Shown here: positions 1 through 43,733 of the stretch, one piece after another | How the letters are laid out: the number at the start of each line of letters is the position of its first letter | How positions within the stretch are numbered: the first letter of the stretch is position 1 | Assembly: GCF_000026545.1 (NCBI RefSeq) | Contig: NC_011601.1 | Direction: 5' to 3' (one strand) | Source of the DNA: Escherichia coli O127:H6 str. E2348/69 | GTDB taxonomy: Bacteria; Pseudomonadota; Gammaproteobacteria; Enterobacterales; Enterobacteriaceae | Length of the DNA stretch: 64,000 nt | The notes under the pieces: model-generated | What the model was told of the DNA's origin: nothing | The model's database searches: none | Seen by the model: the letters and a program-made list of their open reading frames with translations, nothing else | Program-made: the position numbers and the translations under genes

Positions 1-619
1 GACACCTATTCACAACAAGTTTATTGCTGCACTTGTTGTAGAGAGTATTTGTAAAAACATTTTATGTCGCTAAATAACATGACGATTTCATTATGCATGT
101 TATTTATAAACAGCGACTAAACAGAATATTATTGCGAACAAGGGAAGTGTCAGGAAAGGTCAAGAGGTACTAATAGTTTATATGGCTATAAACATTAGCT
201 ATGGTTAATGTTTGCCTGGTGAAACTAACACCAAATTGCTGTAACCCTCTTTGAATCATAAACTGAAGGATGATGCAGCACAGTTCCTCGCGGACTATCC
301 TGGCTACTACATGACCAAACGCGGATATCATCCTCAAGCAGTCAACTCTGGCAATCTTTTTACTCAGCTATGAGGACCTGATCGTCGACTTTGCCATCTG
401 CATGATGAATCTCCTCAGCAGCAGATGCAGTATTTACCGAAATGAATCCCATGAATAATGCAGTAATTAGTAGTGCTTTCATATCTGATGCCTGTTTTAA
501 ACGATATATTTGGAAGTTGACGAATATCGGAAGGAGCTTCCTCCTTCTTGATCTGTAAATATACAGTTCTAAGCTGTCATAAGACTGACTGTCATATGAC
601 AACGTTGTCAGATTTTTGA

Positions 620-910
<291 letters not shown>

Positions 911-1258
911 TGAATCTAGTTCATAAGATAAATCCGTAACACTCACTTGTTTTAACTTAATATTTTTAATAAAAAGATTAAGTTACTTCCAAATAGCTTC
1001 ATGAACTAGCTAAGAATGCGCTTCATCCAAGGCCTCCTGAAGGCGTTCGGGGATACAATTTAGGGAAGCCTCGAAATGTTGCTGCTCAGCAGCTTTTTCC
1101 ATCCAGTCCCGAAACTAGTTAGGGGTTACTCCATACATTGTTAAATGTCAAAATATTGATAAATGTTTTATAGATAACAGTAAGTTAGCCATATTTTTTC
1201 ATTGACCTTTCATTTGTGACGAAGCAAACTGACCTGAATAGTCGCATAGGGATGTCAT

Positions 1259-2359
1259 ATGATTCCTGAAATTGAACTTAGAGATATTCAGCCAAAGGGA
1301 AGCAGTGATGTCCCGTCGTCTTCGCACATTCAGACTGGATTACCGATTCCAAAAACAGTGCGGGTTCAGTTCTTTAGCCCTGACGAATGGGAGTCGTTTA
1401 CAGAGGAATGGGCAAGTTATCTCAAAAATGAATATGTTGCAGCCAGACGCTTTGGGGGTTCTGGTGATCTTGGGATAGATATTGCTGGTTTCTGTTCTGA
1501 CAAGGGATTCGAGGCGGTATGGGATAATTATCAATGCAAGCGCTATGGACATCCTCTTCGGCCTGGTGATATCTGGGTTGAAATTGGCAAGATTATTTAT
1601 TACTCATATCTTGGCAAATATACCCCTCCACGAAAGCATTTTTTTGTTTGCTCTCAGGGAATAGGAACCAGTCTTGAACAGTTGTTGAACAAGCCTACTG
1701 AGTTGAAAGAAAAATCGATTGAAAACTGGGATAATTACTGTCTCAAGGGTATCACTTCTACTGCTGAAATTCCGTTGACTGGTGCATTAAGAGCTTACCT
1801 CGACGCATTTGATTTCACTATTTTCTCATCAAAATCGATAGTTGAGCTTATCGAAATTCATGCCAGAACGGGTTTTCACTCGGTTCGCTTTGGCGGCGGG
1901 CTGCCGTATCGGCCTAATCCATCTTCTCCACCAACCATACCGACGGAAAATGAAAGCCGATACATTCGCCAGTTGCTTGATGCCTATGGAGACCATTTAG
2001 GCACAAATTTACCAGACGCTGCTTCGTTGGCGTCACACAATCAATTTCGTAGTGACTATCTTCGCCAGCGCGAACGTTTTTATCACGCAGAATCGCTAAA
2101 GAATTTTGCGCGAGATACTGTTCCTGCGGGGACATTTGATGCCTTACAGGATGAAATCTACCATGGCGTAATTGATGTCTGCGAAGATTATCACTTGAGT
2201 GGATTTGCGAGAATGAAAGAAACCATGAAGCACGCTACCACTATCGCTGTCACATCAAATCCGTTGGTCACTTCAATTAAAACACAAGATCGCCAAGGTA
2301 TATGCCATCAGTTGGCTAATGACGATCGCCTGATTTGGGTGCCAGATAATGAATCATAA
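1259..2359 (+). CDS. Mrr-like PD-(D/E)xK nuclease-domain protein; candidate effector (LmuA-like) of a Lamassu/ABC-3C-type defence operon
   Basis: 366-aa ORF; N-terminal motif RRFGGSGDLGIDIAG...WDNYQCKRY matches the Mrr-type restriction endonuclease catalytic signature (D..D...QxK); AGGGA 6 nt upstream of ATG; stop overlaps start of next ORF. Confidence 0.6.
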   Translation: MIPEIELRDIQPKGSSDVPSSSHIQTGLPIPKTVRVQFFSPDEWESFTEEWASYLKNEYVAARRFGGSGDLGIDIAGFCSDKGFEAVWDNYQCKRYGHPLRPGDIWVEIGKIIYYSYLGKYTPPRKHFFVCSQGIGTSLEQLLNKPTELKEKSIENWDNYCLKGITSTAEIPLTGALRAYLDAFDFTIFSSKSIVELIEIHARTGFHSVRFGGGLPYRPNPSSPPTIPTENESRYIRQLLDAYGDHLGTNLPDAASLASHNQFRSDYLRQRERFYHAESLKNFARDTVPAGTFDALQDEIYHGVIDVCEDYHLSGFARMKETMKHATTIAVTSNPLVTSIKTQDRQGICHQLANDDRLIWVPDNES

Positions 2360-2834
2360 AAAACATCCAGAGCCCTTTAATAGTCCTTTCGAAACCGGGA
2401 TACGTTCGCTTGCGATTCTGGTTGCAGCCTTCCCTGAGTCTTATGATTTGCAACGGCTAGTTGAAATGGATTATCTCGTTGTGCATTCCGGTGATGCTGA
2501 TGGTCCTGACAGTTTGCATGCCCCATTACCGATGCGTGCGGGCGAACTACTGGTCAGGCATGGTTTGATTGAAAAGGGATTGATGCTCATGATGAGCAGG
2601 GGGCTCGTCCAACGTGTTTCAGCCAGTGATGGGTTCAACTATCTTGCTGGGGAGCTCGCTGCACCTTTTATCTCTTCTCTTACGACTGAATATTCATGTC
2701 GACTAAAAGTTTGTGCTGAATGGGTAACTGGTGAATTTAAAGACCTGCCTACGCAGGAAATACGGAACATTACGCATCGCTTGTTTCAGCAGTGGTCGAG
2801 TCAGTTCCAGAGTATTCAGTCATCTGGAGGATGA
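2349..2834 (+). CDS. small protein, candidate middle component (LmuC-like) of the three-gene operon
   Basis: 161-aa ORF; ATG at 2349 overlaps the upstream stop (2357-2359) and its TGA (2832-2834) overlaps ATGATGATG of the next gene, implying translational coupling; no recognisable catalytic motif. Confidence 0.5.
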   Translation: MNHKKHPEPFNSPFETGIRSLAILVAAFPESYDLQRLVEMDYLVVHSGDADGPDSLHAPLPMRAGELLVRHGLIEKGLMLMMSRGLVQRVSASDGFNYLAGELAAPFISSLTTEYSCRLKVCAEWVTGEFKDLPTQEIRNITHRLFQQWSSQFQSIQSSGG

Positions 2835-4663
2835 TGATGAGCGATAATTATTTGCAGCTTAGAAAAATTTTGTTCCATGGCCAAACCAAAGAATCCGTTT
2901 TATCTTTTTCATCCGGTATTAATGTGATTTGTGGGGCTTCCGATACCGGCAAATCATTCCTGGCAGAAACTCTGGATTTTATGCTGGGTGGAACGGAGCT
3001 CAGGGAAATTACAGAATTAGCTGCTTATGCAGAAATAACTCTCGATTTTGTCACCAGTGATGGTCGAAGTTGGCGTCTTCAACGTGCAGTGACTGGCGGG
3101 AATTTCAAGTTAACTGATTTGGATGAGCCAGACTCGGAACCTATCGTGCTAAAACAGAAGTACGTTCGGGGTAAAACGGATAATATCTCCAGTTTTTTAC
3201 TTGAACAGATTGGCTTGCCGAATAAGGAGATTTTGAAAAGTAGTACCAAAGCGACGACTCAGGGACTGAGCTTCCGCAATCTGGCGAGACTTGCTCTGGT
3301 TCAGGAAGATGAAATTCAGCATAAAGGCTCTCCCTTTTGGAGTGGGCAGTTCACAACCAAAACCGCTGAACTGGCAACGGTCAAACTGCTGCTGACAGGG
3401 GGTGATGATTCTGCGGTCGTTGCAGTGAGTGGCGATGGTGTAAGCAATACGTCTCAGATTATGTTGATTGATGAGTTAATTGCGGAGTTATCCATTGAAA
3501 TTAAGGATATGGGAGAAGAGCGTGATGATCTGGCTTCCCAACTGACCCGCCTTGAACAATCTATTGAGAGTCAACGTGAATCGCTCACTGCCGCACAGCA
3601 GCAACTAGAGCAGTTATTACAACAAAGGGGACTGGCCTTTGATGAGCGAAACAAAATCCAGGGACGACTGGATGAGATATCCGAACTACTTGCCAGATTT
3701 ACACTTCTGAATGAGCATTATGTTATAGATATCAACCGTCTGAAATCCATTCAGGAGTGTGGCTTGCTCTTCATGCATATTGACGTGATTCCTTGCCCTC
3801 ATTGTGGAGCTAGTCCAGCTCACCAACACCTGGAACAAATATGTGATGGAGATGTAGATTCAATCATTACTTCAGCAACTGCCGAGATGCAAAAGACCGA
3901 ACGACTTTTGGCAGAGCTGAATTGTACAGTCAGAGATCTTGTCAGCGAAAAGCAACGCCTTGAGAAGCAATACATTGTCCATGAAGAGGATTATTTGCGT
4001 CTTGATAAAGCCATTCGGGAAACTATTGCTCCTGAAGTTGACAGTTTCAGGCACTCGTATGCTGAACTGATCGACGAACGGGCCAGTGTCCAGCAATCTA
4101 TTGATTTGTTCTCAAGATTGGACCGGCTGGAAAGCAGGAAAGTGGCATTACAAAGCGATACTCCGGTAAAAAAAGAAAAAAGTGCGGTGCAAAACGGCAT
4201 TCCAGAGTCTGTTGCCCATAGTCTGTCGTTAAAAATCTCCTCTATATTAAAAGACTGGCATTTCCCCGGAGCATGCCAGGTATTTTTTGACAAAGATACT
4301 TCGGATTTTGTAATTGATGGAAAACCTCGCGGTAGCCGGGGAAAGGGGCTACGAGCAATTACCCATGCGGCAGTCAGTGTCGGACTACTTGAGTTTTGCC
4401 AAGAAAATGGGCTATCGCATCCGGGATTCCTAGTTCTGGATTCCCCTCTACTGGCTTACTACAAACCAGAAGGTGAAGATGATGTAGCTTTGCAAGGTAC
4501 TGACTTGAAAGAGAAATTCTATGATTATCTTGTGAAGCACCATAATGAAGATAGTCAGATCCTTATTATAGAAAATCCGCATCCACCGCAAAGCATGAAT
4601 AAACAGATTACTATGACGGTATTCACTGGTAATCCTAGGGTTGGCCGTTTCGGATTGCTTTGA
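2831..4663 (+). CDS. SMC/Rad50-like ABC ATPase with central coiled-coil and CxxC hook (LmuB-like)
   Basis: N-terminal Walker A GASDTGKS (nt 2933-2956); long heptad-rich, Q/E/L-rich central region containing CPHC (nt 3794-3805); C-terminal hhhhD motif FLVLDSP (nt 4427-4447); GGAGG at 2826-2830; start chosen among ATG 2831/2834/2837 (track ORF begins 2792). Confidence 0.65.
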   Translation: MMMSDNYLQLRKILFHGQTKESVLSFSSGINVICGASDTGKSFLAETLDFMLGGTELREITELAAYAEITLDFVTSDGRSWRLQRAVTGGNFKLTDLDEPDSEPIVLKQKYVRGKTDNISSFLLEQIGLPNKEILKSSTKATTQGLSFRNLARLALVQEDEIQHKGSPFWSGQFTTKTAELATVKLLLTGGDDSAVVAVSGDGVSNTSQIMLIDELIAELSIEIKDMGEERDDLASQLTRLEQSIESQRESLTAAQQQLEQLLQQRGLAFDERNKIQGRLDEISELLARFTLLNEHYVIDINRLKSIQECGLLFMHIDVIPCPHCGASPAHQHLEQICDGDVDSIITSATAEMQKTERLLAELNCTVRDLVSEKQRLEKQYIVHEEDYLRLDKAIRETIAPEVDSFRHSYAELIDERASVQQSIDLFSRLDRLESRKVALQSDTPVKKEKSAVQNGIPESVAHSLSLKISSILKDWHFPGACQVFFDKDTSDFVIDGKPRGSRGKGLRAITHAAVSVGLLEFCQENGLSHPGFLVLDSPLLAYYKPEGEDDVALQGTDLKEKFYDYLVKHHNEDSQILIIENPHPPQSMNKQITMTVFTGNPRVGRFGLL

Positions 4664-4830
4664 TTAGGAGGATGGTTTGAATGGAAACACAATGCACAAT
4701 GTCGTGCAGTTGTTGCTGCGCACAATGGTCGTTTATGGACGAAGTTATCACTTCAGTCAAAAGAATTTTAAGTAGCTAAGCTGCGCGTTGGATAGGTAAT
4801 GAAATGACATAAACAGATATTATAGCGACC

Positions 4831-5292
4831 GTGGCATGTGCCATATCAGGGGTCGCCGCGCTATTTTCAGGAATAGCATTATGTCAATCAGCAAAAGCAA
4901 ACCGCAGAGCAAATCAGGTATCAGAGCGAGGCTTGCGTATTGATTTAGTTGATTGTCGTATGAATATACGGAATGCGTTCACGTTAATTATGGATGAGTT
5001 CGAGGCGCAGAGATACGGGCCAGCAGATAACTATATTATTCAGGCAAAAATCACCTTCCGTGATGCGGGTATATTTTTTGGTAATGACGTAAGTGAATTT
5101 CTTACCGAGTTAATGAGACAAATTAGCACCTACAGCGAGATATTTAAAACTAGGACAATGGGCCGTCTTATTTTTGACCCTCAAGGAGATGTTAGAGAGG
5201 AAGAGCAACGATTAGAACAAATAAGGCTATGGGTGATAGCACAGCGTGGGCCCGGCAATGACATGTTCGACAGAATCATGAGTGTTTCATGA
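4831..5292 (+). CDS. hypothetical protein, N-terminal hydrophobic segment; start uncertain (GTG at 4831 or internal ATG)
   Basis: 153-aa ORF with AT-rich rare codons (ata, aga, tta), followed immediately by a stem-loop plus T-tract; no motif recognised. Confidence 0.35.
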   Translation: MACAISGVAALFSGIALCQSAKANRRANQVSERGLRIDLVDCRMNIRNAFTLIMDEFEAQRYGPADNYIIQAKITFRDAGIFFGNDVSEFLTELMRQISTYSEIFKTRTMGRLIFDPQGDVREEEQRLEQIRLWVIAQRGPGNDMFDRIMSVS

Positions 5293-5302
5293 TACACGCT
5301 AG

Positions 5303-5332
5303 ACCCGGCCTCAGTGCCGGGTGTTTAATTTT
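5303..5332 (+). terminator. Rho-independent terminator-like hairpin downstream of the 153-aa ORF
   Basis: acccggc-ctcagt-gccgggt stem-loop followed by gtttaatttt. Confidence 0.45.
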
Positions 5333-5569
5333 CCTAACTACAACCGTCGCCTCACCGTCCCCCAAACGAATCGGAACAGCTGTTCCATGAACAGTCAGAT
5401 GGTGTGGCCCAAATTAGTTGCCCACTACACTTCAAGACTATAAATTCTGGAGTAACAGTCGGTTAGCTTCCTTCATGGGCCAGTCATGGCGAGTTGTTAA
5501 GTATGGCTGTTTGCGATAAGCTTTAGATACTCTTTAGCGTTGGACGGTTACGTCTAGTCGGGTGATTAG

Positions 5570-6607
<1,038 letters not shown>

Positions 6608-36831: not shown

Positions 36832-37140
36832 ATGATGAAACTCTCAACCTGCTGTGCCGCGCTTCTGCTCGCCCTCGCCTCACCCGCGGTACTCGCCGCG
36901 CCGGGATCCTGTGAGCGCATACAGCGCGATATATCACAGCGCATTATCAATAATGGCGTACCCGAAAGCAGCTTCACGTTAAGTATTGTACCCAATGACC
37001 AGGTTGATCAGCCTGATTCCCAGGTCGTCGGGCATTGCGCTAATGATACGCATAAAATTCTCTACACCCGTACCACCAGCGGTAACGTCTCTGCTCCCGC
37101 GCAGTCTACCCAGGATAACGCGCCTGCTGAACCGCAGTAA
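36832..37140 (+). CDS. ynfD: secreted protein YnfD (DUF1161)
   Basis: MMKLSTCCAALLLALASPAVLAAPGSCERIQ... signal peptide; matches YnfD. Confidence 0.8.
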   Translation: MMKLSTCCAALLLALASPAVLAAPGSCERIQRDISQRIINNGVPESSFTLSIVPNDQVDQPDSQVVGHCANDTHKILYTRTTSGNVSAPAQSTQDNAPAEPQ

Positions 37141-37338
37141 CACATTATCGACTGAACGCCGGATACGACACATCCGGCGATTTGAACATACAACATAATC
37201 CCACCTTATTACTCATACCCTTCTATTGATATGGATTAATAATTATTAACCCCAAATGGGTAGACTCTCTCTATTGTTAGCGCGCTAAATATTCAATATA
37301 TAAACATTTATATAACGATAAAGAACAGGGAGTGAGTT

Positions 37339-39765
37339 ATGTCCAAAAATGAACAAATGGTGGGCATCAGCCGCAGAACACTCGTTAAATCTACCGCGAT
37401 AGGTTCTCTGGCGCTGGCTGCAGGCGGTTTTTCTTTGCCGTTTACCCTGCGCAGTGCAGAAGCAGCGGTACAACAGGCCAACGAAAAAGTGGTCTGGGGT
37501 GCCTGTTCCGTCAACTGTGGTAGCCGCTGTGCACTTCGTCTGCATGTTAAAGATAATGAAGTGACCTGGGTGGAAACTGACAACACCGGCAGCGACGAGT
37601 ATGGCAACCATCAGGTACGCGCCTGTTTGCGCGGTCGCTCCATCCGTCGGCGTATTAATCATCCCGATCGCCTGAATTACCCAATGAAACGCGTGGGCAA
37701 ACGCGGCGAAGGCAAATTCGAACGGATTAGCTGGGATGAAGCCCTGGATACTATCGCCAGTAGCCTGAAAAAAACCGTCAAACAATATGGCAATGAGGCT
37801 GTATATATTCAGTACTCTTCGGGGATTGTTGGCGGCAATATGACCCGCTCTTCTCCATCAGCCTCGGCGGTCAAACGCCTGATGAACTGCTACGGCGGTT
37901 CACTAAATCAGTATGGCTCCTACAGCACTGCGCAAATTTCCTGTGCCATGCCCTACACCTACGGCAGTAATGATGGCAACAGCACCACGGATATTGAAAA
38001 CAGCAAGCTGGTCGTGATGTTTGGTAACAACCCGGCTGAAACCCGCATGAGCGGCGGTGGCATCACCTATCTTCTTGAAAAAGCACGCGAGAAATCGAAC
38101 GCAAAAATGATTGTTATCGATCCGCGATATACCGATACGGCTGCTGGTCGTGAAGATGAATGGCTTCCTATTCGCCCGGGCACCGATGCCGCGCTGGTTG
38201 CGGGTATTGCCTGGGTATTGATTAACGAAAATCTCGTTGATCAACCTTTTCTCGATAAATACTGCGTCGGCTATGACGAAAAAACCTTACCCGCAGATGC
38301 ACCCAAAAATGGTCACTATAAAGCCTATATTCTTGGTGAAGGCGATGATAAAACAGCGAAAACGCCGCAGTGGGCTTCGCAAATTACAGGTATCCCGGTA
38401 GACCGTATCATCAAACTGGCGCGTGAAATTGGCACAGCAAAACCCGCTTATATCTGCCAGGGCTGGGGGCCGCAACGCCAGGCAAACGGCGAGCTGACGG
38501 CACGCGCTATTGCTATGTTGCCTATTTTGACGGGCAATGTCGGCATCAGCGGCGGAAATAGTGGTGCGCGTGAATCGACCTACACCATTACCATCGAACG
38601 CTTGCCGGTGCTGGATAATCCGGTCAAAACGTCAATCTCCTGCTTCAGCTGGACAGATGCTATCGATCATGGCCCGCAAATGACGGCAATCCGCGACGGC
38701 GTCCGGGGCAAAGATAAACTAGATGTGCCCATTAAGTTCATCTGGAACTACGCGGGAAATACCCTGGTTAATCAGCATTCTGACATCAACAAAACGCATG
38801 AAATTCTGCAGGACGAATCGAAATGCGAAATGATTGTGGTCATCGAAAACTTTATGACCTCATCGGCAAAATATGCCGACATTCTGCTGCCAGACCTGAT
38901 GACCGTTGAGCAGGAAGATATTATTCCTAACGACTACGCCGGTAACATGGGATATCTCATTTTCCTCCAGCCTGTCACCAGCGAAAAATTCGAACGCAAA
39001 CCAATTTACTGGATCCTGAGTGAAGTCGCGAAACGTCTTGGACCTGACGTCTATCAAAAGTTCACTGAAGGTCGCACGCAGGAACAATGGTTACAACATC
39101 TGTACGCCAAAATGCTTGCCAAAGATCCGGCGTTACCGTCTTACGACGAATTAAAAAAAATGGGTATCTATAAGCGTAAAGATCCCAATGGTCATTTTGT
39201 CGCCTACAAAGCATTTCGTGACGACCCCGAGGCAAATCCACTTAAAACGCCTTCCGGTAAGATTGAAATTTATTCCAGCAAGCTGGCGGAAATTGCCCGT
39301 ACCTGGGAACTGGAAAAAGATGAAGTGATAAGCCCACTGCCGGTTTATGCCTCAACCTTTGAAGGCTGGGACTCCCCTGAACATAGTGCCTTCCCACTGC
39401 AACTGTTTGGTTTCCATTACAAATCCCGTACGCACTCGACCTACGGCAACATTGATGTCCTGAAGGCAGCCTGCCGTCAGGAAGTGTGGATCAACCCTAT
39501 AGATGCACAGAAACGTGGGATTGCCAACGGCGATATGGTGCGGGTGTTTAACCATCGTGGCGAAGTTCGGCTACCAGCCAAAGTGACACCACGCATTCTC
39601 CCTGGAGTTAGTGCTATGGGCCAGGGAGCCTGGCACGAGGCCAATATGTCTGGCGATAAAATCGACCACGGCGGCTGTGTGAATACGCTAACCACTCTGC
39701 GCCCTTCACCACTGGCGAAGGGAAACCCGCAGCACACTAATCTGGTCGAGATCGAAAAAATATAA
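37339..39765 (+). CDS. ynfE: DMSO-reductase-family molybdoenzyme catalytic subunit (Tat-exported), selenate-reductase-like
   Basis: 808-aa protein with twin-arginine signal (SRRTLVKS) and Cys-rich 4Fe-4S motif CSVNCGSRC; matches YnfE. Confidence 0.9.
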   Translation: MSKNEQMVGISRRTLVKSTAIGSLALAAGGFSLPFTLRSAEAAVQQANEKVVWGACSVNCGSRCALRLHVKDNEVTWVETDNTGSDEYGNHQVRACLRGRSIRRRINHPDRLNYPMKRVGKRGEGKFERISWDEALDTIASSLKKTVKQYGNEAVYIQYSSGIVGGNMTRSSPSASAVKRLMNCYGGSLNQYGSYSTAQISCAMPYTYGSNDGNSTTDIENSKLVVMFGNNPAETRMSGGGITYLLEKAREKSNAKMIVIDPRYTDTAAGREDEWLPIRPGTDAALVAGIAWVLINENLVDQPFLDKYCVGYDEKTLPADAPKNGHYKAYILGEGDDKTAKTPQWASQITGIPVDRIIKLAREIGTAKPAYICQGWGPQRQANGELTARAIAMLPILTGNVGISGGNSGARESTYTITIERLPVLDNPVKTSISCFSWTDAIDHGPQMTAIRDGVRGKDKLDVPIKFIWNYAGNTLVNQHSDINKTHEILQDESKCEMIVVIENFMTSSAKYADILLPDLMTVEQEDIIPNDYAGNMGYLIFLQPVTSEKFERKPIYWILSEVAKRLGPDVYQKFTEGRTQEQWLQHLYAKMLAKDPALPSYDELKKMGIYKRKDPNGHFVAYKAFRDDPEANPLKTPSGKIEIYSSKLAEIARTWELEKDEVISPLPVYASTFEGWDSPEHSAFPLQLFGFHYKSRTHSTYGNIDVLKAACRQEVWINPIDAQKRGIANGDMVRVFNHRGEVRLPAKVTPRILPGVSAMGQGAWHEANMSGDKIDHGGCVNTLTTLRPSPLAKGNPQHTNLVEIEKI

Positions 39766-39822
39766 CCCACTACGACCATAAATTTTGACATGACATTTTG
39801 TTTGAAAAGCAATAAGTGAGTA

Positions 39823-42249
39823 ATGATGAAAATCCATAACACAGAGGCGCTCATGTCGGCTGAAATCAGTCGTAGAAGTCTGATGAAAACCTCCGCACTT
39901 GGCAGTCTCGCGCTGGCAAGCAGTGCTTTCACTTTGCCGTTTTCCCAAATGGTCCGAGCGGCACAGGCACCGGTAGAAGAGAAAGCGGTCTGGAGTTCCT
40001 GCACCGTTAACTGCGGGAGCCGCTGTCTGTTACGTTTGCATGTGAAAGATGACACCGTGTACTGGGTGGAGTCTGATACGACAGGTGACGACGTTTACGG
40101 TAATCATCAGGTTCGGGCATGTTTACGCGGGCGCTCTATCCGCCGACGGATGAATCATCCTGACAGGTTGAAATATCCCATGAAGCGCGTCGGCAAGCGC
40201 GGTGAAGGTAAATTTGAACGGATAAGTTGGGACGAAGCCCTGGATACCATCAGTGATAATCTTCGGCGGATCCTAAAAGATTACGGCAATGAGGCTGTAC
40301 ATGTTCTCTATGGAACAGGCGTAGATGGCGGAAACATCACCAACTCAAACGTCCCGTACCGTCTGATGAACTCTTGCGGTGGTTTTCTCAGTCGCTATGG
40401 CAGCTACAGTACCGCACAGATCAGTGCCGCAATGAGTTATATGTTCGGTGCCAATGATGGCAACAGCCCGGATGATATCGCCAATACGAAACTGGTCGTT
40501 ATGTTCGGAAATAACCCGGCAGAAACACGGATGAGCGGCGGTGGTGTCACTTACTACGTCGAGCAAGCCCGCGAACGTTCAAACGCACGCATGATCGTCA
40601 TCGATCCACGTTATAACGACACAGCTGCCGGGCGTGAAGATGAATGGCTGCCCATTCGCCCTGGCACCGATGGCGCACTGGCCTGTGCGATTGCCTGGGT
40701 ACTGATTACTGAAAACATGGTCGATCAGCCATTTCTCGACAAATATTGTGTTGGTTACGATGAAAAAACGCTGCCAGCTAACGCTCCACGTAACGCGCAT
40801 TATAAAGCCTATATTCTGGGCGAAGGGACTGACAGCATAGCTAAGACGCCGGAATGGGCAGCAAAAATCACCAGCATCCCGGCAGAAAAAATTATCCAGT
40901 TGGCACGAGAGATCGGTTCAGCAAAACCGGCTTATATTTGTCAGGGTTGGGGGCCACAACGACATTCCAACGGCGAGCAAACGTCCCGCGCTATTGCCAT
41001 GCTTTCCGTTCTCACCGGTAACGTCGGCATAAACGGCGGCAACTCAGGTGTACGCGAAGGTAGCTGGGATCTGGGGGTAGAATGGTTCCCGATGCTCGAG
41101 AATCCAGTTAAAACGCAGATTTCCGTCTTTACATGGACAGATGCCATCGACCATGGTACGGAAATGACCGCGACCCGTGATGGTGTTCGAGGAAAAGAAA
41201 AACTGGATGTCCCCATCAAGTTTTTATGGTGCTACGCCAGTAACACATTGATCAATCAACATGGCGACATCAATCACACCCATGAGGTGCTTCAGGATGA
41301 CAGCAAGTGCGAGATGATTGTTGGCATTGACCACTTCATGACTGCCTCGGCTAAGTATTGCGATATCCTGTTACCCGACCTGATGCCAACAGAGCAAGAA
41401 GACCTTATCTCTCATGAGTCTGCCGGGAATATGGGCTATGTGATCCTCGCCCAACCCGCAACCTCAGCAAAATTTGAACGCAAACCCATCTACTGGATGC
41501 TGAGCGAAGTCGCCAAACGCTTAGGACCAGACGTTTATCAAACCTTTACTGAAGGTCGCAGTCAGCATGAATGGATCAAATATCTCCATGCGAAAACGAA
41601 GGAACGTAACCCTGAGATGCCCGACTACGAGGAGATGAAAACGACCGGGATCTTTAAGAAAAAATGCCCGGAAGAACACTACGTCGCTTTCCGCGCATTC
41701 CGTGAAGATCCACAGGCAAACCCGTTGAAAACACCTTCGGGGAAAATCGAAATTTATTCTGAACGACTGGCGAAGATTGCAGATACCTGGGAATTGAAAA
41801 AAGATGAAATTATTCATCCCCTTCCTGCGTATACCCCAGGTTTTGATGGCTGGGACGATCCCCTGCGGAAAACCTATCCACTGCAACTAACGGGCTTCCA
41901 CTACAAAGCGCGTACCCACTCCAGCTACGGCAATATTGATGTGTTACAGCAGGCCTGCCCACAAGAGGTGTGGATCAACCCTATTGATGCTCAGGCACGC
42001 GGTATCCGTCATGGCGATACCGTGCGGGTATTTAACAATAATGGAGAAATGCTGATTGCCGCAAAAGTGACTCCGCGTATTCTGCCTGGCGTTACCGCCA
42101 TCGGGCAAGGTGCGTGGCTTAAAGCGGATATGTTTGGTGACCGGGTCGATCACGGCGGCAGTATCAATATTCTGACCTCTCACCGCCCTTCACCGCTGGC
42201 AAAGGGAAACCCGTCGCACAGCAATCTTGTCCAGATCGAAAAGGTTTAA
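39823..42249 (+). CDS. ynfF: DMSO-reductase-family molybdoenzyme catalytic subunit (Tat-exported), paralog of ynfE
   Basis: 808-aa protein with Tat signal (SRRSLMKT) and CTVNCGSRC; matches YnfF. Confidence 0.9.
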   Translation: MMKIHNTEALMSAEISRRSLMKTSALGSLALASSAFTLPFSQMVRAAQAPVEEKAVWSSCTVNCGSRCLLRLHVKDDTVYWVESDTTGDDVYGNHQVRACLRGRSIRRRMNHPDRLKYPMKRVGKRGEGKFERISWDEALDTISDNLRRILKDYGNEAVHVLYGTGVDGGNITNSNVPYRLMNSCGGFLSRYGSYSTAQISAAMSYMFGANDGNSPDDIANTKLVVMFGNNPAETRMSGGGVTYYVEQARERSNARMIVIDPRYNDTAAGREDEWLPIRPGTDGALACAIAWVLITENMVDQPFLDKYCVGYDEKTLPANAPRNAHYKAYILGEGTDSIAKTPEWAAKITSIPAEKIIQLAREIGSAKPAYICQGWGPQRHSNGEQTSRAIAMLSVLTGNVGINGGNSGVREGSWDLGVEWFPMLENPVKTQISVFTWTDAIDHGTEMTATRDGVRGKEKLDVPIKFLWCYASNTLINQHGDINHTHEVLQDDSKCEMIVGIDHFMTASAKYCDILLPDLMPTEQEDLISHESAGNMGYVILAQPATSAKFERKPIYWMLSEVAKRLGPDVYQTFTEGRSQHEWIKYLHAKTKERNPEMPDYEEMKTTGIFKKKCPEEHYVAFRAFREDPQANPLKTPSGKIEIYSERLAKIADTWELKKDEIIHPLPAYTPGFDGWDDPLRKTYPLQLTGFHYKARTHSSYGNIDVLQQACPQEVWINPIDAQARGIRHGDTVRVFNNNGEMLIAAKVTPRILPGVTAIGQGAWLKADMFGDRVDHGGSINILTSHRPSPLAKGNPSHSNLVQIEKV

Positions 42250-42259
42250 GGAGTAGCCC

Positions 42260-42877
42260 ATGACCACACAATATGGATTTTTTATCGATTCCAGCCGCTG
42301 TACTGGCTGTAAAACCTGCGAACTGGCGTGCAAAGATTTTAAAGATCTTGGCCCGGAAGTCAGTTTCCGCCGTATTTATGAATATGCTGGCGGCGACTGG
42401 CAGGAAGATAATGGCGTCTGGCACCAGAACGTGTTCGCTTATTATCTCTCCATCTCCTGTAACCATTGCGATGACCCCGCATGTACAAAAGTCTGCCCCA
42501 GCGGCGCAATGCATAAGCGTGAAGATGGCTTTGTGGTGGTTGATGAAGATGTTTGTATCGGCTGCCGCTACTGCCACATGGCTTGTCCGTACGGCGCGCC
42601 ACAGTACAATGCTGAAAAAGGGCACATGACGAAGTGCGATGGTTGTTATTCGCGCGTCGCCGAGGGGAAACAACCCATATGTGTCGAATCCTGCCCGCTG
42701 CGTGCACTTGAGTTCGGTCCAATTGAAGAGCTGCGCCAGAAGCACGGCACTCTGGCTGCCGTCGCGCCACTGCCGCGCGCACATTTCACAAAACCCAATA
42801 TCGTTATCAAACCTAACGCCAACAGCCGCCCGACCGGCGATACCACTGGTTATCTGGCTAATCCGGAGGAAGTGTAA
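42260..42877 (+). CDS. ynfG: 4Fe-4S ferredoxin-type electron-transfer subunit
   Basis: 205-aa protein with four Cys clusters (CxxCxxCxxxCP), matching YnfG. Confidence 0.9.
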   Translation: MTTQYGFFIDSSRCTGCKTCELACKDFKDLGPEVSFRRIYEYAGGDWQEDNGVWHQNVFAYYLSISCNHCDDPACTKVCPSGAMHKREDGFVVVDEDVCIGCRYCHMACPYGAPQYNAEKGHMTKCDGCYSRVAEGKQPICVESCPLRALEFGPIEELRQKHGTLAAVAPLPRAHFTKPNIVIKPNANSRPTGDTTGYLANPEEV

Positions 42878-42878
42878 A

Positions 42879-43733
42879 ATGGGAAATGGATGGCATGAAT
42901 GGCCACTGGTTATCTTTACCGTATTGGGTCAATGCGTAGTAGGCGCGCTGATTGTTAGCGGAATTGGCTGGTTCGCCGCCAAAAATGACGCAGACCGTCA
43001 GCACATTATTCGTGGCATGTTTTTCCTCTGGCTGTTGATGGGCATCGGGTTTATTGCCTCTGTCATGCACCTGGGATCGCCACTGCGGGCGTTTAACTCG
43101 CTGAATAGAATCGGAGCTTCTGGTCTGAGTAACGAGATTGCTGCCGGTTCCATATTTTTTGCCGTTGGCGGATTATGGTGGCTGGTGGCGGTCATCGGTA
43201 AAATGCCGCAAGCGTTGGGGAAACTCTGGTTACTTGTCAGCATGGCGCTCGGCATCATTTTCGTCTGGATGATGACCTGCGTGTATCAAATCGACACTGT
43301 GCCAACCTGGCATAACGGTTACACTACGCTGGCTTTCTTCCTGACGGTATTGTTGAGCGGTCCAATACTTGCTGCCACAATTCTGCGTGCAGCCCGCGTT
43401 ACATTTAATACCACACCATTTGCCATCATTAGCATTCTGGCGCTGATCGCTTGTGCCGGGTTGATTGTGCTGCAAGGTTTGTCTCTGGCGTCTATTCACT
43501 CATCCGTACAACAAGCCAGCGCACTGGTACCAGATTACGCCTCCTTACAGGTCTGGCGTGTGGTATTGTTATGCGCAGGTCTTGGATGCTGGCTTTGTCC
43601 GCTCATTCGTCGCCGTGAACCTCACGTTGCCGGACTTGTTCTGGGGCTAATCCTCATTCTTGGCGGTGAGATGATCGGGCGTGTGCTCTTTTATGGCCTG
43701 CACATGACGGTAGGAATGGCTATTGCAGGTTAA
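42879..43733 (+). CDS. ynfH: DmsC-like membrane anchor subunit
   Basis: 284-aa multi-TM protein from MGNGWHEWPLVIF; ATG 1 nt after the ynfG stop; the longer track ORF is an in-frame upstream extension. Confidence 0.9.
   Translation: MGNGWHEWPLVIFTVLGQCVVGALIVSGIGWFAAKNDADRQHIIRGMFFLWLLMGIGFIASVMHLGSPLRAFNSLNRIGASGLSNEIAAGSIFFAVGGLWWLVAVIGKMPQALGKLWLLVSMALGIIFVWMMTCVYQIDTVPTWHNGYTTLAFFLTVLLSGPILAATILRAARVTFNTTPFAIISILALIACAGLIVLQGLSLASIHSSVQQASALVPDYASLQVWRVVLLCAGLGCWLCPLIRRREPHVAGLVLGLILILGGEMIGRVLFYGLHMTVGMAIAG

Follow-up and report, generated by a model that had tools for sequence, protein, structure and literature searches.

The 64-kb stretch of Escherichia coli O127:H6 strain E2348/69 analyzed here (herein referred to as the window) carries two consecutive paralogous genes, ynfE and ynfF, that encode the catalytic subunits of the ynfEFGH-dmsD selenate/tellurate reductase operon. 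We consider it highly probable that these genes are an old, independently evolving pair at the head of an FNR-activated operon, and that rare in-register deletions of a single repeat unit turn this pair into ynfE::ynfF hybrids. Clean hybrid genes of 808 codons were identified in no fewer than 10 of the 5426 complete E. coli genomes surveyed; in these genes the 5′ part of ynfE continues in register into the 3′ part of ynfF and exactly one unit of 2484 bp is missing; such genes are also found in draft assemblies, in Salmonella and in Citrobacter. The pair in the window itself is intact, ordinary and already known: ynfE and ynfF have been described as paralogous selenate reductase subunits (PMC5203670, PMC12724226), and an initial annotation of the window, made from the sequence alone, was correct in calling them a known tandem duplication.

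Divergence and Age of the ynfE-ynfF Pair

Both genes lie on the plus strand, ynfE at 37339-39765 (808 aa; RefSeq WP_000041664.1) and ynfF at 39826-42249 (807 aa from its annotated start; RefSeq WP_012601528.1). The open reading frame (ORF) of ynfF opens at 39823 (39823-42249, 808 codons plus stop), RefSeq having taken the second ATG, at 39826, as the start; apart from ynfF opening one ATG (3 nt) earlier than annotated, the two consecutive 808-codon ORFs of the initial annotation are exactly where it placed them. The full-length proteins share 567 of 801 aligned residues (71%, E=0, BLASTP), and blastn aligns 37483-39758 with 39979-42242 (both on the plus strand) at 70.7% over 2286 bp, so that a comparison of 37339-39765 with 39823-42249 does show the repeat, albeit a diverged one. 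It is also, as had been claimed, the largest internal repeat in the window: self-BLASTN of all 64 kb finds this pair as the sole substantial repeat, the other match being a near-perfect (88%) 34-bp palindrome at 10346-10379, which coordinate conversion places in the uxaB-yneE gap.

Codon-aligned DNA identity between ynfE and ynfF is 69.7% (0.79, 0.84, and 0.46 at codon positions 1, 2, and 3), with a saturated proportion of synonymous differences (pS) of 0.71, a nonsynonymous divergence (dN) of 0.21 and a dN/dS of 0.09. Gene conversion between the two genes was detected neither by sliding pS windows (minimum over 60-codon windows at least 0.59), nor by a permutation test on run lengths (at 17 nt, the longest exact run in register is shorter than the shuffled mean of 20), nor by a mosaic scan of E. 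coli-like proteins. The first ~145 nt, which encode the signal-peptide region, are unalignable at the DNA level, and the genes share no k-mer on either strand at k = 18, 20, 21, 25, or 31. The minimal processing segment for RecA-dependent exchange in E. coli is roughly 23-27 nt, a length of which the 17 nt of this pair falls short; because the copies are ~70% identical in DNA and hold no exact run above 17 nt, they are a poor substrate for classical RecA recombination.

A scan for YnfF, with one genome per species, returned 53 loci, and a neighbor-joining (NJ) tree was built from 50 family members. Bootstrap support in this tree is 100% for each of the F, E, and DmsA clades, with YnfE and YnfF both outside the DmsA clade (bootstrap 100) and with DmsA orthologs of other genera 65-69% identical to YnfE and YnfF. 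The E clade comprises Enterobacteriaceae, Rahnella and Rouxiella, and E and F are joined, together with one Pasteurellaceae copy, at 94% support. The copies thus group by gene and not by species, which points to a single ancient tandem duplication, older than the divergence of Escherichia, Salmonella, Citrobacter, and Kluyvera; since then the two genes have evolved independently under purifying selection. Concerted evolution was rejected on the same grouping by gene and on the absence of any low-pS window or excess of run length.

The slot between ynfD and ynfG-ynfH-dmsD is occupied by E and F in Escherichia, Salmonella, and Citrobacter amalonaticus, by E only in Enterobacter, Phytobacter, Kosakonia, and Rouxiella, and by an apparently F-only gene in Citrobacter youngae and two further Citrobacter species. 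The single-copy E genes of Enterobacter, Kosakonia, Phytobacter, and Rouxiella were considered as possible chimeras and rejected, as they are E-type throughout; their few F-type sites look ancestral because Rahnella has them too. In Rahnella (loci L017, L018, L037, L040, and L052) and the Pasteurellaceae genus Mesocricetibacter (L043), the slot holds a YnfE-clade gene and then a DmsA-clade gene, before a single B-C-DmsD set. Kluyvera cryocrescens has ynfFGH immediately after dmsABC, without the ynfD and dmsD flanks, and in both Kluyvera loci concerned (L034 and L036; Kluyvera cryocrescens, MGYG-HGUT-00110) the dmsABC set is complete. A 350-bp contig assigned to the Bacillota species Alkalicoccobacillus porphyridii (L058; coverage ~1) is 100% identical in translation to residues 219-334 of E. 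coli YnfF, and almost certainly reflects contamination of the assembly with E. coli DNA.

In-Register Hybrids in E. coli and Salmonella

Hybrids were sought by a full-length protein search with the hybrid of the C. youngae group (described below) and by site-by-site scoring at E/F-diagnostic residues; this query is F-biased and under-samples late crossovers, and a protein search with its first 150 aa returned only short fragments. In the survey set of 5426 complete E. coli genomes, 5126 have at least 80% of 37339-42249 in one contiguous match. The corresponding figure for coverage of 80% or more in the search that yielded the hybrid matches was not used to count hybrids, because there normal genomes were also joined into one place. 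The junction of ynfE 3′ end, spacer, and ynfF 5′ end occurs in 5289 genomes, whereas 5318 contain some ynfEF sequence, and candidate hybrids therefore number at most 29. The closed-genome count rests on the listed single-piece matches of 3559 bp, which belong to ECONIH4, six "0H" strains, and CAVP776, together with JCC-EE 7 and one further closed record whose crossover lies at gene nt 691-698. Three of these ten records (ECONIH4, CAVP776, and JCC-EE 7) were mapped directly and seven were assigned from identical search statistics.

Seven distinct crossovers were recognized in E. coli, five of which could be placed in patches of 5-10 nt common to both copies. Scored along the protein, the switch from E to F falls between residues 344 and 347 in P0152 (E2-344, F347-808), 366 and 381 in P0155, 382 and 386 in P0154, 451 and 459 in P0159, 459 and 468 in P0160, P0161, and P0163, and 513 and 522 in P0166. 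At the nucleotide level (all coordinates on the plus strand, the ynfE patch being given first and its ynfF partner second), the JCC-EE 7 hybrid switches in AACCCGGC at 38029-38036 and 40513-40520 (gene nt 691-698), inside the LVVMFGNNPAETR block, that is, the NNPAETR block quoted in the initial annotation. The patch is at 38371-38375 and 40855-40859 for P0152 (locus L060), AACGGCGAGC at 38485-38494 and 40969-40978 (gene nt 1147-1156) for the hybrid of ECONIH4 and CAVP776, 38716-38720 and 41200-41204 for P0160 (L061 and L062), and GACCTGATG at 38893-38901 and 41377-41385 for P0166 (L063). Every E::F hybrid lacks the ynfE-ynfF spacer at 39766-39825. The Salmonella chimeras (P0140/P0141, P0143, P0145/P0146/P0149, and P0156) are likewise clean when scored against Salmonella's own E and F, and represent four or five distinct in-register junctions.

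The initial annotation had named assembly collapse as a risk at this repeat, and the hybrids could in principle be artefacts of assembly in which the paralogs were collapsed or mis-joined, particularly as most hybrid proteins form clusters of one member and come from draft assemblies of short reads (NCBI drafts and Logan). We regard this as very unlikely. The copies have no k-mer of 18 nt or longer in common, and crossover patches of 5-10 nt are far below the k used by assemblers; both copies are intact in the window, and most complete genomes hold the region contiguously, as noted above. Three draft hybrids were examined, and each is a single A-subunit gene between ynfD and ynfG, situated mid-contig (contigs of 30-198 kb) with normal flanks and with its crossover within 5-9 nt of E=F identity. 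Moreover, hybrids occur in closed complete genomes of independent isolates; the separately sequenced ECONIH4 and CAVP776 (recorded from Charlottesville, Virginia) carry the identical hybrid allele WP_104457354.1, and the Citrobacter hybrid is found in three species. Collapse is hence not a credible account of the hybrids, given the lack of any usable shared k-mer, the short crossovers, the closed genomes and the recurrent allele.

A Hybrid Shared by Three Citrobacter Species

Of 119 diagnostic sites in the apparently F-only gene of the C. youngae group, the first 6 have the E-type residue and 110 of the other 113 the F-type residue; the entire twin-arginine translocation (Tat) signal peptide of its product is of the YnfE type. 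At the DNA level the switch is abrupt and in register, at approximately nt 170-176 (…GATAAAG|CTGTCTGGAGTTCC…), just past the onset of nucleotide homology between E and F. This gene is common to three species, where it stands in place of both parents, and is consistent with one in-register event that removed a unit in their common ancestor.

An E-type signal peptide could alternatively be the ancestral state of YnfF, with ynfE lost by plain deletion. E and F are sister clades (94%), so that the earliest ynfF would presumably have had an E-like 5′ end, and the ynfF of Kluyvera has three E-type diagnostic residues near its N-terminus. However, the first 170 nt of the hybrid are 80% identical to ynfE of C. 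amalonaticus, an ortholog-level match equal to the 82% of its body to C. amalonaticus ynfF, whereas the paralogous 5′ ends are wholly unalignable; the nearest F orthologs and the DmsA outgroup have a DmsA-type signal peptide; and the abrupt switch follows an upstream region that is itself ynfE-type, FNR box included. On the strength of the ortholog-level 5′ match, the unalignable paralog 5′ ends and the ynfE-type upstream region, we reject an ancestral F state as extremely unlikely and retain a deletion-derived hybrid as the explanation of the Citrobacter gene.

Other Lesions at the Locus

In-register hybrids are accompanied by lesions of several other kinds, and the exceptions inspected first (ZH193, STLIN_13, MB07152, and CPE35) belonged to these kinds rather than to E/F crossovers. 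In 546 of the 5426 complete E. coli genomes (about 10%), including ZH193 and the ST131 strain EC958, ynfF is a pseudogene with two deletions of 580 bp (window equivalent 40540-41119) and 274 bp (41894-42167) that show no junction microhomology; the 83% match of the ZH193 type, considered as an E/F recombinant, was rejected on finding these two internal deletions. Expression of "ynfF" has been measured in EC958, and YnfF counted among its related S-/N-oxide reductases (PMC12096835). In the ST131-type remnant (L002), 17 of 21 substitutions fall within 146 bp (41742-41887) abutting the second deletion; a conversion tract from E to F was rejected, as only 7 of the 21 sites match the ynfE base, and the cluster is possibly an imported divergent tract or local decay.

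Mobile elements account for a second group. In STLIN_13 (L003), a prophage with a site-specific integrase adjoins ynfE cut at window position 38735 (ynfE nt 1397), and strain H1 (H69), in which an IS30 element is among the features under the match, is broken at the identical nucleotide; this position may be a phage attachment site within ynfE. MB07152 has an IS1-associated deletion at ynfEF. The O145 strain RM9154-C1 (L067) joins ynfE nt 1-1487 to ynfF nt 1482-2427 in register (window equivalents 38825 and 41304) with an IS3-family element exactly at the joint, and three more Shiga toxin-producing E. coli records (H142, H151, and H152) give comparable matches that contain insertion sequence (IS) elements.

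A third group comprises rearrangements and lesions of the coding sequence. CPE35 (L005) was rejected as an in-register hybrid because it carries an out-of-register deletion of 1171 bp, from ynfE nt 1497 to ynfF nt 185, and the generically named "ynfE" of strain 14EC007 (H160), considered as a conversion mosaic, is a frameshifted ynfE. The E. coli proteins P0121-P0137 include many independent out-of-register but in-frame YnfE::YnfF fusions of 946-1206 aa, with joints such as E786 to F386, E604 to F246, and E330 to F186, as well as an internal partial duplication of ynfE (P0130; E1-690 followed by E278-808).

Origin of the Hybrids

The pair might be nothing more than an inert diverged duplication, its single-copy states being ordinary deletions or ancestral absence. 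Such an account agrees with the 70% DNA identity, saturated synonymous sites, lack of conversion tracts and separate E and F clades, with the contiguity of the two-gene region in most complete genomes, with the many lesions that are IS or prophage insertions or internal or out-of-register deletions, and with the E-only genes of Enterobacter, Kosakonia, and Phytobacter, which are free of chimerism. We nonetheless find it unlikely, as E-to-F junctions in exact register occur at no fewer than seven positions in E. coli, at four or five in Salmonella and, in fixed form, at one in Citrobacter, and random deletion endpoints over 2.4 kb would very improbably give exact register.

We consider it far more likely that one 2484-bp unit is occasionally lost in register, by a crossover at a shared patch of 5-10 nt. 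Because the register is exact at many different positions, the event is probably guided by alignment of the homeologous copies, and its route would be replication slippage or homeologous (mismatch-tolerant) exchange between adjacent copies. What results is one uninterrupted ynfE(5′)::ynfF(3′) gene, which retains the promoter and signal peptide of ynfE but lacks the spacer that responds to RyhB. That the pair usually persists is explained by the rarity of hybrids and purifying selection on both copies. The suggestion in the initial annotation that the repeat is a potential substrate for recombination is hence borne out by rare in-register hybrids in E. coli, Salmonella, and Citrobacter, though not by way of long exact homology.

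Lepore-type unequal crossover between tandem paralogs is exemplified by the delta/beta-globin and opsin hybrids of humans, and in bacteria nearby repeats can undergo deletion independently of RecA. The ynfE::ynfF hybrids resemble the Lepore type in that one repeat unit is removed to leave a 5′-copy 1::copy 2-3′ gene under the promoter of copy 1; they differ in the ~70% identity of the parents, in the 5-10 nt patches at which they are joined, which are shorter than the 23-27 nt minimal segment of RecA-dependent exchange, and in that no reciprocal triplication was seen.

Several considerations weigh against this account. Few genomes carry in-register hybrids, with a lower bound of 10 and an upper bound of about 29 among the 5426 complete genomes, and the evidence for them consists of assembled sequences rather than raw reads. 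Selection for intact ORFs and our search strategy both favor the detection of in-register, in-frame products. All chimeras run from E to F, with no F-to-E chimera, triplication, or mosaic seen among E. coli-like proteins, and crossovers are not enriched in the most similar E/F segments (local similarity percentiles 24-89). The position of F with respect to E comes from a single NJ tree with a long F stem (94%), and as enzymes the hybrids are putative. The broader proposal that the pair serves as a recurrent natural source of functional chimeric molybdoenzymes, which escape RyhB and are able to replace both parents, is one that we offer tentatively and with somewhat less than even confidence.

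Gene Identities and Comparison with Known Systems

The identification of the two genes in the initial annotation was right, as positions 37000-44500 match annotated E2348/69 (O127:H6) at 100% across ynfE, ynfF, ynfG, ynfH, and dmsD, and each product scores above the curated NCBIfam cutoff of its own model and below that of its paralog. The ynfE product (37339-39762) scores 1792.8 against NF041885 (selenate/tellurate reductase subunit YnfE; cutoff 1675), where the ynfF product reaches 1483.4, and the ynfF product (39826-42246) scores 1773.3 against NF041884 (selenate/tellurate reductase subunit YnfF; cutoff 1650), where the ynfE product reaches 1475.3. Both fall below the cutoff of 1600 of the DmsA model NF011566 (YnfE 1346.8, YnfF 1317.4) and above the threshold of 777.7 of the DmsA/YnfE family model TIGR02166 (1397.6 and 1285.5). 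Hybrids are named inconsistently by the same models, because those with mid-gene crossovers miss both cutoffs (that of ECONIH4 scores 1642.9 and 1615.7, just under each) and those with early crossovers, such as the JCC-EE 7 and Citrobacter hybrids, pass as YnfF although their promoter and signal peptide are those of YnfE.

All motifs quoted in the initial annotation (Tat signal, CxxNCGSRC cluster, and shared blocks) are found in both proteins, which are predicted to be Tat-exported catalytic subunits carrying a molybdenum-bis(molybdopterin guanine dinucleotide) (Mo-bisMGD) cofactor and a [4Fe-4S] cluster. The order of Pfam domains (Molybdop_Fe4S4, Molybdopterin, Molydop_binding) is identical; the twin-arginine motifs, from which export is predicted, are SRRTLVK in YnfE and SRRSLMK in YnfF; and the motifs predicted to bind the cluster, CSVNCGSRC and CTVNCGSRC, respectively, belong to a C-x3-C-x3-C arrangement with a fourth cysteine ~31 residues further in both translations. 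The block LVVMFGNNPAETRMSGGG is present in both. The copy of the PDB that we searched with YnfE and YnfF held no YnfE, YnfF, or DmsA structure, and the best sequence matches were 1eu1, 7l5i, and 1dmr (~E 1e-75), from Rhodobacter dimethyl sulfoxide reductase (DorA) and TorA. DorA and E. coli TorA, the closest solved structures, belong to the same Mo-bisMGD fold family; the matches, however, cover little of the N-terminal region, where YnfE and YnfF have an Fe-S cluster domain, DorA and TorA being soluble enzymes without an N-terminal Fe-S cluster.

Downstream and likewise on the plus strand, all of the operon partners typical of the DmsA/YnfE family are present in RefSeq: a DmsB-type ferredoxin, a DmsC-type anchor, and a DmsD chaperone. 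The first, ynfG (42260-42877), encodes the four-cluster iron-sulfur electron-transfer subunit common to YnfE and YnfF (TIGR02951 264.8, cutoff 214.1). The second, ynfH (42879-43733), encodes a DmsC-family membrane anchor/quinol oxidase subunit, recognized by a Pfam DmsC match on the orthologous product; YnfH has no NCBIfam hidden Markov model (HMM) match at E <= 0.001, and its RefSeq name, "selenate reductase membrane anchor subunit YnfH," was presumably assigned by a rule not based on an HMM. The third, dmsD (43776-44390), encodes the Tat proofreading chaperone (NF008632 344.2, cutoff 162).

In gene order, family-model hits and 71% E/F identity, this is the E. coli/Salmonella ynfEFGH-dmsD selenate/tellurate reductase operon (Lubitz & Weiner 2003; Guymer et al. 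2009; Fujita et al. 2021, primary studies cited here second-hand), from which the window shows no difference. It resembles DmsABC in its Pfam architecture, its A/B/C subunit logic, its chaperone DmsD and the DmsA-like signal peptide of YnfF, and differs from it in that YnfE and YnfF score below the DmsA cutoff (1347 and 1317 vs. 1600) and lie outside the DmsA clade, dmsABC itself being elsewhere on the chromosome.

Operon Function and Regulation

Enzyme function and control by RyhB are taken here from the literature. The operon product is a membrane-bound selenate reductase that depends on Tat and DmsD, and DmsD binds the signal peptides of DmsA, YnfE, and YnfF (PMC5203670). Deletion of ynfEF in E. 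coli abolishes reduction of Se(VI), that is, selenate (PMC12724226), and in Salmonella, where YnfE and YnfF are likewise 71% identical, YnfE is the main catalytic subunit (PMC5203670). The view that emerges from this work is that either YnfE or YnfF would dock on a shared YnfG and YnfH after DmsD-assisted maturation, forming a periplasm-facing selenate/tellurate reductase in which YnfH would be the menaquinol-oxidizing membrane anchor and YnfG the iron-sulfur subunit; YnfE would supply most of the activity and YnfF little, under separate repression by the small RNA RyhB. The gene ydfZ, annotated as a "putative selenium delivery protein," lies at 28953-29156, ~8 kb upstream of the operon.

Upstream of ynfE, in the operon promoter region, an FNR-box-like site TTGATatggATTAA at 37226-37239 (plus strand) has one mismatch to TTGAT-N4-ATCAA, and the site is conserved in Citrobacter, ahead of both C. 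amalonaticus ynfE and the hybrid gene. The ynfEFGH-dmsD operon is listed among those directly activated by FNR, with a site at -40.5 (PMC3688515), and the box at 37226-37239 is probably this functional FNR site. RyhB represses translation of ynfF and dmsA, and for ynfF a segment from -60 to +24 was used in the reporter construct (PMC4666370). This segment corresponds to the ynfE-ynfF spacer (39766-39825, plus strand), which holds the ynfF ribosome-binding region, and to the DmsA-like 5′ end of ynfF.

YnfF could be a redundant, decaying copy rather than a functionally distinct isoenzyme. Decay is suggested by the statement, in the part of PMC5203670 that cites Guymer 2009, that YnfF "does not contribute greatly" to selenate reduction, by the rank of ynfE and ynfF among the most frequently pseudogenized metabolic genes (PMC13322260), by the two-deletion ynfF pseudogene of ST131 and other strains, and by the lack of ynfF at the locus in the sampled Enterobacter, Kosakonia, and Phytobacter genomes. 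Set against this are the dN/dS of 0.09 across the pair, the conservation of the F clade over four genera, and the specificity of RyhB control to ynfF; moreover, the Citrobacter clade retained the F body and dropped the E body, and Kluyvera retains ynfF without ynfE at the locus examined. On balance we think redundancy and decay somewhat unlikely.

Elsewhere in the window, the region at ~257-6574, beside hipBA, encodes two "ABC-three component system" proteins, an AAA-family ATPase, a short protein with a reverse-transcriptase domain, and integrase and other gene fragments, and looks like a decayed mobile element with a candidate defence system.

Implications

No description of natural ynfE::ynfF hybrids was found in the searchable literature, and in-register hybrids are thus a modest and apparently undescribed population-genomic observation, which illustrates that adjacent paralogs at 70% identity are still able to fuse in register. 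In practical terms, the inconsistent names given to hybrids (generic family or YnfF) can mislead gene calls at this locus in pangenomes and metabolic models, and the roughly 10% of complete E. coli genomes without an intact ynfF, the ST131 reference strain EC958 included, are relevant wherever YnfF is counted among the S-/N-oxide reductases of a lineage. Natural chimeras could also help to pinpoint what determines substrate specificity in this family of enzymes. If the pair is indeed a recurrent source of chimeras, they would constitute a ready-made domain-swap panel for asking why YnfE, and not YnfF, reduces selenate effectively, and a bacterial case of Lepore-type fusion between copies that are only ~70% identical.

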